Shown here: piece by piece, positions 42,001 through 45,000 of the stretch
Position numbering within the stretch: the stretch's first letter is position 1
Layout of the letters: each line of letters starts with the position of its first letter
From: Salinicoccus sediminis
Lineage (GTDB): Bacteria; Bacillota; Bacilli; Staphylococcales; Salinicoccaceae
DNA: 64,000 nucleotides
Assembly: GCF_000986795.1 (NCBI RefSeq)
Contig: NZ_LAYZ01000003.1
Span: 3,055 to 67,054 of the forward strand
Reading direction: 5' to 3'
Position numbers: made by a program

Positions 42001-45000
42001 TGTGGCGGGGGAGGATCGCATCATCGGCAACAAATGCGACAAGACTCCTCTGCTCCAGTTCCCTGCGTATATGCACCTGGTCCAGCATGAGAGCCACCTG
42101 CTCCTTAAGCCCTTCCTGATCAAGGTTTTGGTAGAGCAGTGCATCATCGGCAATTTCGGGGAGTATGCCGGTCATGATGCCGGCTGCCGCTTTGCCCAGG
42201 ATCTTCCGGCCTGCAGCCGGCAGACCGACTTCGAATCGTACCTCCAGTTCATTTTCATCAATGACAACAGATGTTCGCTCCAAAATTTCCTGGCCGGGAC
42301 GGTCAATCAGTATTTTGATGTTTTTACTGTTCGTTTTAGCGGCATTCTTCTGCTTTTGAATGCTTTCTCCAAATGCACGCGTCAAAAAGTCTGCCACTGC
42401 CGTGATTTTATCCTTTGTATCCAGCAAATCCGCTGGAATTCCTGCTGTTTCACGGTTCATGATGACCCGCATCTTGGATGGCGGGGCATATGGGTCGACC
42501 TGTATATGATCAATCGCCAGTTTGAAACGTTTGAACTGGTAAATACCCTTCAACTGCTTGTAGGCACCGTATTTCTGTCCGTCCAATTTATTCAGTACAG
42601 CTTCAAGTTGTTTAGCGTCCTTCATACATATGCTCCTTCTGGAAAGTATGTGTTTACGATACATATACAAGTTTAACAATGGAGCCGGCTGAATTATAGG
42701 GATGTGTTTCGATCATTCATGGAGGAGGAATGGAAACAGCACCATTCTTGTACGAATTTCCCATCGAGGTTCTTTATCAGAAAACAAACTGTATCAGAAT
42801 CATATAGCAAAGTGTGCCGCCCGCTATTGAAATCAGCATGTTTTTCTTCCAGTAGTGCAGAATGACGATCAATCCGACTGCAAGAAGCTCGGGTAAAAAA
42901 CTTTCGAAACTCGTAAAGGAAACATTCCGTAAAGCATAGACGACAAGGAGGCCAAATACTGCAGGGGGGAGTACATAACCCAGATATTTGATATACTGCG
43001 GCGTCTCTTTATCCCGGGAGAAGATAAGAAACGGCAAAAATCTTGTGATCATTGTTCCAGCTACAACCACGACGATAATGAGAATCTGCTGTGTTACCGA
43101 CATCTCAGGAAATCACCTCCCGTTTTTCCAGTATTTTTTTAATGGAGGATAATGCAAGCAGTATTAGTATCATGGCCGGTATGATGAAATTGTCCGGGCC
43201 GAATAAAACCAGGCATAAAACCGATGCAGTAATACCGATAACTGAACTCACATGATAACGTTCCTTCATCCACTGATCCAAAAATATGACGACAAAAAGT
43301 GCAACCATGACGAATTCAAGCCCGTCGGTGTTAAATGAAATTGCCGAACTGAAAAGGCTGCCGAGTGTTGTGCCGCCCACCCAGTAGATCTGGTTGAGAA
43401 ACGTGACGTAAAACATGAACCAGCCCTTGTTTATGTATGAAGGCACATCTGTCGTGCTGTTTATGACGAATGATTCATCGCACATGCCGTATATCAAATA
43501 AGGCTTTTTCCTCCCTGAGCCTTTGAATTTATCCAACATGGCAATGCCGTAAAAAAGGTGCCTCGCATTAATCATCAAAGTCAGGAAAAACGCACTCAGC
43601 GGACTGAATGGCCCCAGAAGCAGGCTTCCGGCTACAAATTCCATGGAACCTGCGAAAATGAATATGCTCATCAATATTGCGTATGCCGGCCCGAATCCTA
43701 AAGAGTTCATATAAATACCGTAGGATATACCGAGGAACATGAAACCTGCAAGTATCGGTATTGTTTTAGGAAAGGCGTATTTTAATGTGGCAATATGGTT
43801 ATCAAATGACATTGGAAACACCTCCATTGTGAAACTATTTTTTGTAGAATAGTATGTCTTTAAACTGAACTGTACCCTCACCGGCATTTTTGTAGATATG
43901 TGGCTGATTGCCGTCGAAAATGACTGCATCATCTCTGTTCAGCATGATTGACTGCTCGTCTATAACCATTTCCAGGGTGCCGGAATTCACAAAAATATGT
44001 TCTTCCACTTCAGGGCCATGCGGTTCTGCCACATGCGTTTCTCCCTCTGTCAATTCAACTGAGAATACTTCAAAATGCCTCTCCGGTGAAAAGGGGACAA
44101 TATTCCTCACCCTGTAATTCTGGTCGTTTTCAGTGATCAGCACACCCTCATCTTTTCTAACCACTTGCACTTCTCCCTTTTGGTCATAAATCAATGATGA
44201 GAACGAAACTTTGAATCCAGTGGCAATTTTCCAGACAGTAGTAATCGTCGGTACCGAATCACCGCGTTCAATCTGTGCAAGCATGCCTTTGCTGACACCG
44301 GTTATTTCAGAAGTTTTATCCAGGCTGAGTCCCCGTTCCTGCCGTAATGATTGGAGATTGCTGCTGATATTATTAGATATGTTTTCCATCTTAACTCCTT
44401 TCTTAAATTTAATTTCATCGTTGTTATCAATATAGCATACATAAGTATTTTATAGCATACAAAAAACTCCTTAAAATAATAATTACTTTAAGGAATTCGT
44501 TTAAGTTACCGGAGGTGTCCGCCAGACTAATATTCATTTCAGCTGATTTGTATTGAAATTTAATAAAAACTCCATCATTTATGATGGCTCTCGCCGCATC
44601 AGTCTGCATACGGTTTATTTTATATCATCTTCTTTTATAAACTCGAGAAAATCGTCACTTTGTTCATTCATAATACGATTTTCATTAAACTCATCATACT
44701 CTTTTAAAGCCAAGGCATCTGCAATTTCTTTTTTTATATTCCCTGCATTTTCGAGAATTTCCCTATCATTAAATTTTAAAAATGCATCCAGTTTTTCTTT
44801 CCAATCACTCATATACATCGGCTGTTTTCTCTCAGCCTGATCTTCTGCATAATCCAGATACATCGTTACGATCCTATTCATTGATTTAATCTCTGATTCA
44901 TTTAAATAGTTTTTCGCAACTGTTACATCACTTCTACGAACTTTATCACCTTTGTAAGTCTGCAACCCCATATTATCTTTTGACGCATCCACTCTCGCAT

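Follow-up and report, generated by a model that had tools for sequence, protein, structure and literature searches.

INTRODUCTION

Elements of the ccr type that are associated with rlmH are known beyond Staphylococcus, with the Enterococcus cassette chromosome and the staphylococcal cassette chromosome (SCC) of Macrococcus as precedents. In one report on staphylococcal elements, an attachment (att) site of SCC has a central GA dinucleotide 6 bp upstream of a TATCATAA core, flanked by half-sites that form degenerate inverted repeats, and two patterns describe the staphylococcal distal sites, AACC.CATCA......GATAAG and the 36-nt attL13 (10.64898/2026.03.31.715619, Table S2). Tandem cassettes that lack ccr and lie with extra att sites beside SCCmec are excised and circularized in trans by the Ccr enzymes of that SCCmec (PMC11470126). 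Here we analyse a stretch of 64,000 nt from Salinicoccus sediminis (contig NZ_LAYZ01000003.1, positions 3,055 to 67,054; hereafter the window, whose own numbering is used throughout), in which a low-GC island adjoins the 3′ end of rlmH. Our subject is the 73-bp segment 44562-44634 at the outer boundary of this island, which a first, sequence-only reading took for two tandem copies of the integration site sequence (ISS), one of local type and one of canonical Staphylococcus aureus type. We conclude, with a probability of roughly 0.8, that the segment, here named att4, is one complete distal attachment site and belongs to an SCC-like array of cassettes inserted where rlmH ends. The array is an SCC-family feature of ordinary type, here in a genus for which our literature search returned no such description: no account of SCC-type elements was found for Salinicoccus or Jeotgalicoccus, and the papers that name these genera report mec genes as absent or merely list the genera in surveys.

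MATERIALS AND METHODS

ISS copies were scored with a position weight matrix (PWM) for which rlmH ends, taken from 32 relatives, were the sole input, and significance was judged against 200 shuffled windows. Distal sites were searched with nhmmer, using a hidden Markov model (HMM) built from seven distal sites of relatives and excluding the window. The published staphylococcal patterns were compared by counting mismatches across the window. Loci used for comparison are denoted by L and a number.

RESULTS

One attachment site in place of two tandem ISS copies

Both strings on which the sequence-only reading was built are found on the minus strand of the window, the orientation of rlmH, and neither is a chance match (coordinates of all features are given in Table 1). 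The first string resembles the rlmH 3′ end as had been noticed, with 24 of 27 columns identical (two substitutions and one 1-nt gap). Its local alignment score of 20 is the highest found elsewhere in the window, and 60 Markov shuffles reached 16 at most. The second string is a genuine ISS-type sequence, since positions 44592-44564 score 24.8 bits by the PWM while the best scores of the shuffled windows averaged 11.7 bits and peaked at 21.4, so that none of the 200 came as high. Because the alignment score and the PWM score both exceed those of the shuffles, the two observations are real and non-random. The second string is also nearer to the proposed S. aureus-type consensus than the resident rlmH end is (7 mismatches in 26 vs 11, the latter counted by hand). 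The spacing was misjudged, as the strings are separated by 6 nt (CGAGAG) and not by about 12 bp. Positions 44300-44700 are identical in an independent sequencing run (L062).

The two strings take the places of the two halves of a single site. The first contains the element-side (P) half-site, whose start overlaps the rhuM stop codon TAA (44617-44615) and which stands directly 5′ of the GA and the ISS core, although 1 nt closer than the corresponding arms of att2 and the seven relatives. In the distal ISS copies of those relatives and in att2, the 27 nt upstream follow the motif AAAACCGCATCRTARACYGRTACGCN, then come GA and AGCRTATCAY..., and the GA register is identical in att1, att2, att3 and every relative's site. 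The att4 P arm also matches 20 of 23 positions of a P-arm-like motif at 50510-50487, immediately behind rlmH, and the model built from relatives alone recovers att4 with E = 0.0053 over 44605-44569. Thus, the half-site is called from its position, from the match of its inner part, from the homologous rhuM cassettes described below and from its similarity to the 50510-50487 motif.

The best-surviving alternative, which we nevertheless hold to be unlikely, keeps two separate ISS copies in tandem: the first (44626-44594) would be a collapsed mini-cassette that copies the resident rlmH right half, and the second would come from another element, with exchange junctions placed within AAATAAACCG and not at the GA at 44592-44591. 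Several observations speak for it. The first string is the window's best match to the rlmH 3′ flank, the similarity extends a few bases upstream of the arm (AAATAA), modules with an ISS core followed by a P-arm-like motif exist at rlmH in the window and in two other loci (L053 and L084), and ISS copies 50–57 nt apart are common in relatives (L026, L017, L021, L061 and L086). However, a first ISS at this place would have no preceding P arm and scores below 8 bits by the ISS matrix, and the arm stands in canonical register to the GA and the core.

The decisive test is the comparison of rhuM cassettes. The last cassette of the array, E3, is a 1.15-kb unit with rhuM as its sole gene, and its DNA is ∼80% identical to cassettes in L084, L086, L087 and L088. 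The four related rhuM cassettes (L084/85, L086/87 and L088) align through the stop codon, the P arm, the GA and the ISS core, and beyond the core their sequences are unrelated to one another. The bases that precede the arm, which the tandem arrangement would count as part of an ISS, are the native RhuM C-terminus (..EDDIK*), conserved as coding sequence in the homologues with the stop codon in the same place. Because the homologues keep this order of stop codon, arm, GA and core, the first string is not a second ISS; as judged from the alignments, it is the 3′ terminus that copies of a mobile rhuM cassette have in common. Hence the claim of two tandem copies is not supported, and its 'local-type' copy becomes the element-side half-site in front of the GA and core.

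The right half-site lies on the chromosomal side of the boundary

The island extends over ∼44.59-50.52 kb with a GC content of 32-34%, compared with 46-49% in the flanks. The array begins at the GA 16 nt before the rlmH end (50526-50525), and low-GC foreign DNA reaches to 44593. Conservation with syntenic relatives (the metagenomic loci L054/L055 and S. carnicancri L063) restarts at ∼44490-44467, at most ∼100 nt from att4. Because of this contrast in GC content and the return of synteny within ∼100 nt, the segment can be placed at the outer boundary of an rlmH-associated SCC-like island, as the sequence-only reading had proposed, and its view that the cassettes are foreign is borne out by the same GC values. 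Their low GC shows that a lower-GC gene pool was the source of the cassettes themselves, and nothing indicates a Staphylococcus donor for the att4 right half.

Such a donor was nevertheless part of the initial proposal, in which the canonical-type copy had arrived on a cassette, the donor being Staphylococcus or a near relative with an rlmH that ended in ...YHK* TGATGCGG. We regard this as improbable, somewhat more so than a tandem pair. It can draw on the 13-mer ATCATAAATGATG that att4 and the S. aureus site share by eye, on the Staphylococcus-like GC content of the cassettes and on the existence of imported partial rlmH ends, as in L084 at 13977, where ∼60 nt of a second rlmH 3′ end carry a canonical ISS. 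The right half, however, stands outside the rhuM cassette, beyond the GA and thus on the chromosomal side; its sequence varies from one copy of this cassette to another, and there is no rlmH-like B arm in front of it. Set against the S. aureus-type consensus it shows 7 mismatches in 26, compared with 4 to S. halitifaciens and 5 to J. halotolerans, and is thus nearer to Salinicoccus and Jeotgalicoccus ends. With its GAGAGC start it has the form of a Salinicoccus ending (NES.HK), and ends of the TGATGAGGTTTT type occur natively in that genus. Comparison of rlmH ends across the relatives, which the sequence-only reading had suggested for assigning the donor, showed that many species of Salinicoccus and Jeotgalicoccus have native ends of the TGATG(C/A)GGTTTT type. 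In our view the att4 right half is probably the original end of rlmH (...NESHHK*), displaced along with the terminator hairpin that it carries.

The right half does hold a hairpin (CCATCA-TAAA-TGATGG) with the shape of a putative intrinsic (Rho-independent) terminator. A terminator scan flags 44587-44572 with the AGTTTTTATT T tail, so that a stem containing G and C is followed by a T run on the rhuM strand. The hairpin is modest: a 6-bp stem is seen in the fold, and the whole 86-nt segment is weakly structured (z = -1.97). That the second string is only the rhuM terminator, with a likeness to the ISS that arose by chance in AT-rich intergenic DNA, is very improbable, because, in spite of the scan result and of a match to the published S. 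aureus pattern that is tied for the best in the window and just one mismatch better than four unrelated sites (5 vs 6 in 23), its PWM score lies above all shuffles, it stands on the right strand, in register behind the P arm and the GA, at the point where both synteny and GC content change, and homologous rhuM cassettes keep the ISS core even where the hairpin or the T run is absent (L088 and L086). The two roles are moreover compatible, since the native rlmH terminator forms part of the attachment site. On the question of a chance match the initial reading is thus upheld by the matrix built from relatives, while the strict S. aureus pattern taken alone is borderline, and the proposed ISS consensus gave no matches in the window at up to 3 mismatches.

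Some observations weigh against reading the segment as one complete att site. The arm is degenerate, with a C to T change, a 1-nt deletion and an A to G change (TATG-CAGACT-GATGCG), and an HMM of the P arm alone fails to find it, which is the chief weakness of the half-site assignment; counted by hand, the arm departs from the staphylococcal attL13 pattern at ∼12 of 36 nt. A direct P-arm-like motif after the rlmH stop codon is not predicted by the standard half-site anatomy. A crude scan for catalytic motifs in 265 open frames (the window and 48 related loci, up to 10 kb from rlmH) gave no recombinase candidate. The att4 right half could alternatively be the left end of a lost cassette, and no island-free relative was found among the loci compared. 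In the two syntenic relatives, L054/L055 (RlmH 94%) and S. carnicancri (L001 plus L063), the interval between rlmH and the XRE gene is occupied by unrelated DNA of 3 kb and 12 kb, respectively, with no distal att site at nhmmer E values up to 5. A scan of metagenomes for the att4 right half with its flank gave no matches. A second scan, for the arm subtype AAACCGYAT(N)GCAGACTGAT, was discarded: its 20 matches all lay in unrelated coding contexts in other organisms.

The present rlmH end and the motif behind its stop codon

A look-up of the exact RlmH sequence of the window gave no match; the protein is 92% identical to that of S. carnicancri (L001) and 86% to that of S. albus. Compared with its closest relatives, the window shows 91-94% identity over the 122 nt before the GA, and for four of the five relatives this drops to 44-69% in the next 16 nt. 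L060 and L061 encode identical RlmH, yet diverge right after the stop codon. As a separate observation, the 300 nt after the rlmH stop are identical (300/300) in L060 (3280-3579) and L025 (1821-2120), a Salinicoccus-type contig and an Aliicoccus persicus metagenome-assembled genome.

The P-arm-like motif at 50510-50487 directly follows the rlmH stop codon. Among the matches of the P-arm HMM in the window it ranks third (E = 0.057), behind att2 and att3, and it shares its arm subtype with the rhuM cassettes (..AGACTGATAC..), to which the likeness of the first string to the rlmH end can be traced. It has the look of a degenerate att site. Together with its inverted partner, 19 nt further on, it folds into a hairpin of -30.1 kcal/mol (z = -7.5) ahead of a T-rich tail, which is far stronger than that of att4 and presumably serves as the present rlmH terminator (50510-50462). 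This order, in which a direct P arm stands behind an ISS core, recurs at 74 and 6706 in L053 and at 8034 in L084. We suggest that it may be the scar of a cassette collapsed by deletion, from the stop codon in the core to the T-AAAACCG start of the next arm. Inversion between inverted outer motifs was rejected as its source, as the boundary sequences would stay unchanged. At ∼13915-14005, L084 further contains the second rlmH 3′ coding end of ∼60 nt mentioned above, which has a canonical ISS (GAAGCGTATCATCGTTGATGCGGTTTT) and lies at a distance of 7 kb behind the real rlmH; it is an imported fragment of rlmH within an array.

Three cassettes between rlmH and att4

The island contains two further att sites, att2 and att3, that are stronger than att4 and had escaped the sequence-only reading. 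The HMM of seven distal sites gives four matches in the window, all on the minus strand and hence in the orientation of rlmH: att2 (E = 2.2e-9, 47457-47419), att3 (E = 3.4e-7, 45765-45722), att4 and the motif at 50510-50487 (E = 0.19). By mismatch counting, att2 and att3 are the best and second-best matches to attL13 in the window (5 and 7 of 36), and every other site has at least 10. The resident rlmH end, att1, scores 18.4 bits by the PWM and the att2 ISS (47430-47402) scores 33.1 bits; the scores of att2 and att4 are those above all 200 shuffles. The cores of the four same-strand sites are TACCATAA in att1, TATCATCG in att2, TATCATAA in att3 and CATCATAA in att4. An ISS-like site at 31291-31263, inside a Band_7 gene, was discarded, because 21% of the shuffles reach its 13.7 bits.

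Because att2 and att3 divide it, the island can be described as three cassettes, E1 (50524-47431), E2 (47428-45740) and E3 (45737-44593). E1 carries a GntR regulator with an ABC transporter and E2 an alcohol dehydrogenase; neither has relatives among loci L001-L059. In E3, rhuM is split into two open frames by a single in-frame TAG (45097-45095). In the island, scans with Rfam and for tRNA genes gave no match to a known RNA. Neither the open reading frames (ORFs) of the island nor the large ORFs of the window contain a Resolvase or large-serine-recombinase domain.

Table 1. Features of the rlmH-associated cassette array and its flanks in the window
Feature	Coordinates	Strand	Description
First ('local-type') string	44626-44594	minus	GATATAAAATAAACCGTATGCAGACTGATGCGG
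Second ('canonical') string	44587-44562	minus	CCATCATAAATGATGGAGTTTTTATT
rlmH 3′ end	50517-50488	minus	CATAAATAAACCGCATTGCAGACTGATACG
att4, element-side (P) half-site	44593..44620	minus	AAATAAACCGTATGCAGACTGATGCGGC; the 'local-type ISS' of the sequence-only reading
att4, GA dinucleotide	44591..44592	minus	putative strand-exchange point, 6 bp upstream of core
att4, right half-site	44564..44590	minus	GAGCCATCATAAATGATGGAGTTTTTA, core variant CATCATAA; the 'canonical ISS' of the sequence-only reading
Terminator-like hairpin	44562..44587	minus	CCATCA-TAAA-TGATGG then AGTTTTTATT; within att4 right half-site
att3, E2/E3 boundary	45711..45765	minus	AAAATCGTATCATTAGCCGATACATA, GA, GAGCTATCATAAATAA...
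att2, E1/E2 boundary	47402..47458	minus	AAAAAACCGCATCGTAGACCGGTACGCA, GA, AGCATATCATCGTTGATGAGATTTTTA
att1, rlmH-proximal	50498..50526	minus	GA (50526-50525), GAATTACCATAAATAA (last 16 nt of rlmH including stop), ACCGCATTGCA
rlmH (159 aa)	50509..50988	minus	integration target
P-arm-like motif, inverted partner and T-rich tail	50447..50510	minus	AAACCGCATTGCAGACTGATACGA (50510-50487), TCTGCAATGCGGTTT (50476-50462)
rhuM pseudogene	44615..45610	minus	sole gene of E3; Pfam Virulence_RhuM E = 2e-49, 3e-44
E2 cargo, Zn-dependent alcohol dehydrogenase	45935..47095	plus	Pfam ADH_N and ADH_zinc_N; GC 0.318
E1 cargo overall	47628..50297	minus	Pfam matches; GC 0.337
GntR regulator (E1)	49902-50297	minus	
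ABC ATPase (E1)	49039-49905	minus	
ABC-2 permease (E1)	48438-49052	minus	
Unknown 253-aa protein (E1)	47628-48389	minus	
XRE-cupin regulator	43835..44389	minus	first conserved chromosomal gene beyond the island; 100% identical to S. sediminis protein

Observations on related cassettes and on the flanks

In L084 and L088, too, rhuM is called as two ORFs, and pseudogenes may thus be frequent among such cassettes. In L084, which belongs to a Salinicoccus close to S. halodurans, the rhuM cassette stands directly after rlmH. Homology between this cassette and E3 starts at a possible, very degenerate ISS core (GA GATATAAATATAA) on the minus strand at ∼45661-45682, ∼60 nt inside att3, which scores below 8 bits by the ISS matrix. 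Elsewhere, 5′-truncated rhuM genes are fused directly to an ISS core (L001 10463-10594, L032 14685-14800 and L006 19701-20331). The fusion junction TACCATAAATAG|AACACATTAAA is shared by S. carnicancri and J. coquinae without a difference, as would be expected if a truncated cassette had passed from one genus to another.

The ISS copies spaced 50–57 nt apart lie at 10463-10702 in L026, 15923/15976 in L017, 12229/12283 in L021 and L032, 1466/1516 in L061 and 1711/1765 in L086, and Jeotgalicoccus meleagridis (L026) has five of them. Each close-set unit consists of a right half-site and a P arm only and looks like an 'empty cassette'. In Salinicoccus and Jeotgalicoccus, type I restriction-modification genes are common cargo within 10 kb downstream of rlmH (L005, L006, L010, L020, L026 and L031), as identified from N-terminal sequences only.

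Upstream of rlmH lie walRKHIJ, according to the annotation of the syntenic locus L054, and just upstream of walR two tRNA genes (57443-57515 and 57546-57617, minus strand) are the sole Rfam matches in the window. At some distance beyond the island, an identical 23-mer occurs at 35764-35786 and 36825-36847, at the 3′ ends of two neighbouring paralogs (35071-35784 and 36096-36845) whose syntenic counterparts in S. carnicancri carry an IsaA-like domain.

DISCUSSION

A history of the array can be proposed from the anatomy of its sites. At a large-serine-recombinase att site, two degenerate inverted half-sites flank the central GA, where the strands are exchanged; at att4 the left half-site (44620-44593) belongs to the last cassette (rhuM), and the right half-site (44590-44564) to the chromosomal side. 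Each integration at the GA would swap the last 16 nt of rlmH and the downstream sequence for element DNA, which fits the drop in identity behind the GA and the divergence of L060 and L061 after the stop codon. The present rlmH end would thus look 'local' because each incoming cassette supplies a new last 16 nt and what follows, and the outermost right half would be chromosomal or older because exchange at the GA makes the rlmH-proximal end element-derived. Successive integrations may have pushed the original rlmH terminus ∼6 kb away, leaving three recombinase-less cassettes, with GntR/ABC transporter, alcohol dehydrogenase and rhuM genes, between rlmH and att4. This reverses the polarity of the sequence-only reading, in which the resident end was native and the distal copy imported. 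In this model an unoccupied rlmH would end in ...GA GAGCCATCATAAATGATGGAG... joined to the 44563-44467 flank, the fully empty site would read ...ATCAGGAAT-GA-GAGCCATCATAAATGATGGAGTTTTTATTAAATTTC, and the circle junction of the rhuM cassette would read ...GCAGACTGATGCGGC-GA-GAGCTATCATAAATAAGCTTTACACG. That a Ccr-type enzyme made the junctions of the array is what we infer, and the insertion order likewise. Ccr-dependent excision and circularization are predicted and find indirect support in the same rhuM cassette standing at different array positions in L084 and in the window. Today att4 is probably an inert scar that at most terminates rhuM transcription, because its arm is degenerate and no ccr gene lies nearby.

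The reading of the boundary is thereby corrected: the arm beside the ISS is part of the same att site, and the present rlmH end appears to be an imported piece. SCC-type att sites and arrays without ccr, with the half-site anatomy of staphylococci, thus extend to halophilic Staphylococcaceae. Canonical TGATGCGGTTTT-type rlmH ends are native in these genera, and all this bears on the origin of the SCC integration system and on which bacteria could exchange cassettes with staphylococci. No medical relevance is apparent for the cargo itself (a transporter, a dehydrogenase and a rhuM pseudogene). A wider reading is possible, which we hold only tentatively and think doubtful as it stands. In Salinicoccus, Jeotgalicoccus and their relatives, rlmH might serve as an integron-like platform that stacks tiny cassettes of one gene or one operon, each with a half-site overlapping its last stop codon, and these might pass between species and even genera with the help of a recombinase whose gene lies elsewhere or whose type is undescribed, because 48 loci showed none up to 10 kb from rlmH. 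The 50–57-nt 'empty cassettes' and the collapsed sites with a direct P arm after the ISS core would then be by-products of the platform, and the S. sediminis rlmH stop codon would be an example of such a collapsed site.

Among described systems, the array shares with SCC its insertion at the 3′ end of rlmH (orfX) and its core-containing direct repeats; the distal att anatomy is clear in att2 and att3 and is recognized in att4 by the register, the inner arm and the rhuM homologues, and the element carries no ccr gene. We file the array as pseudo-SCC, and not as SCC, because no ccr recombinase was found in the window. It resembles pseudo-SCC, and the 'no_ccr_element' class of SCCmecExtractor, in having att-bounded cassettes downstream of rlmH without a recombinase of their own. 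Unlike the pseudo-SCC beside SCCmec, it has no ccr-bearing cassette in the array or in the window, its mobilization is a prediction, and each of its cassettes is tiny, with a single gene or operon in 1.1-3.1 kb. The Enterococcus and Macrococcus elements carry ccrAB or ccrC, neither of which was found in the window. Integron arrays offer an analogy only: their cassettes are likewise compact and stacked at a single place in the chromosome, with a site right after the last stop codon and the newest cassette nearest the entry point, but the recombinase class is serine and not tyrosine, there is no attC folding, and there is no integrase gene or Pc promoter. Membership among integron cassette arrays was therefore rejected, as no integrase occurs in the window ORFs searched and the sites are of SCC type, not attC. 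Compared with the distal site of SCC and SCCmec, att4 departs in its Salinicoccus host, in its CATCATAA core in place of TATCATAA and in an arm that is degenerate and 1 nt short, and it fails the published staphylococcal patterns, which att2 and att3 nearly pass. It is like that site (the 'attL' of SCCmecExtractor) in lying at the far end of an rlmH insertion in direct orientation, with an arm, a GA 6 bp before the core and a right half that ends in TGATG..GTTTT.

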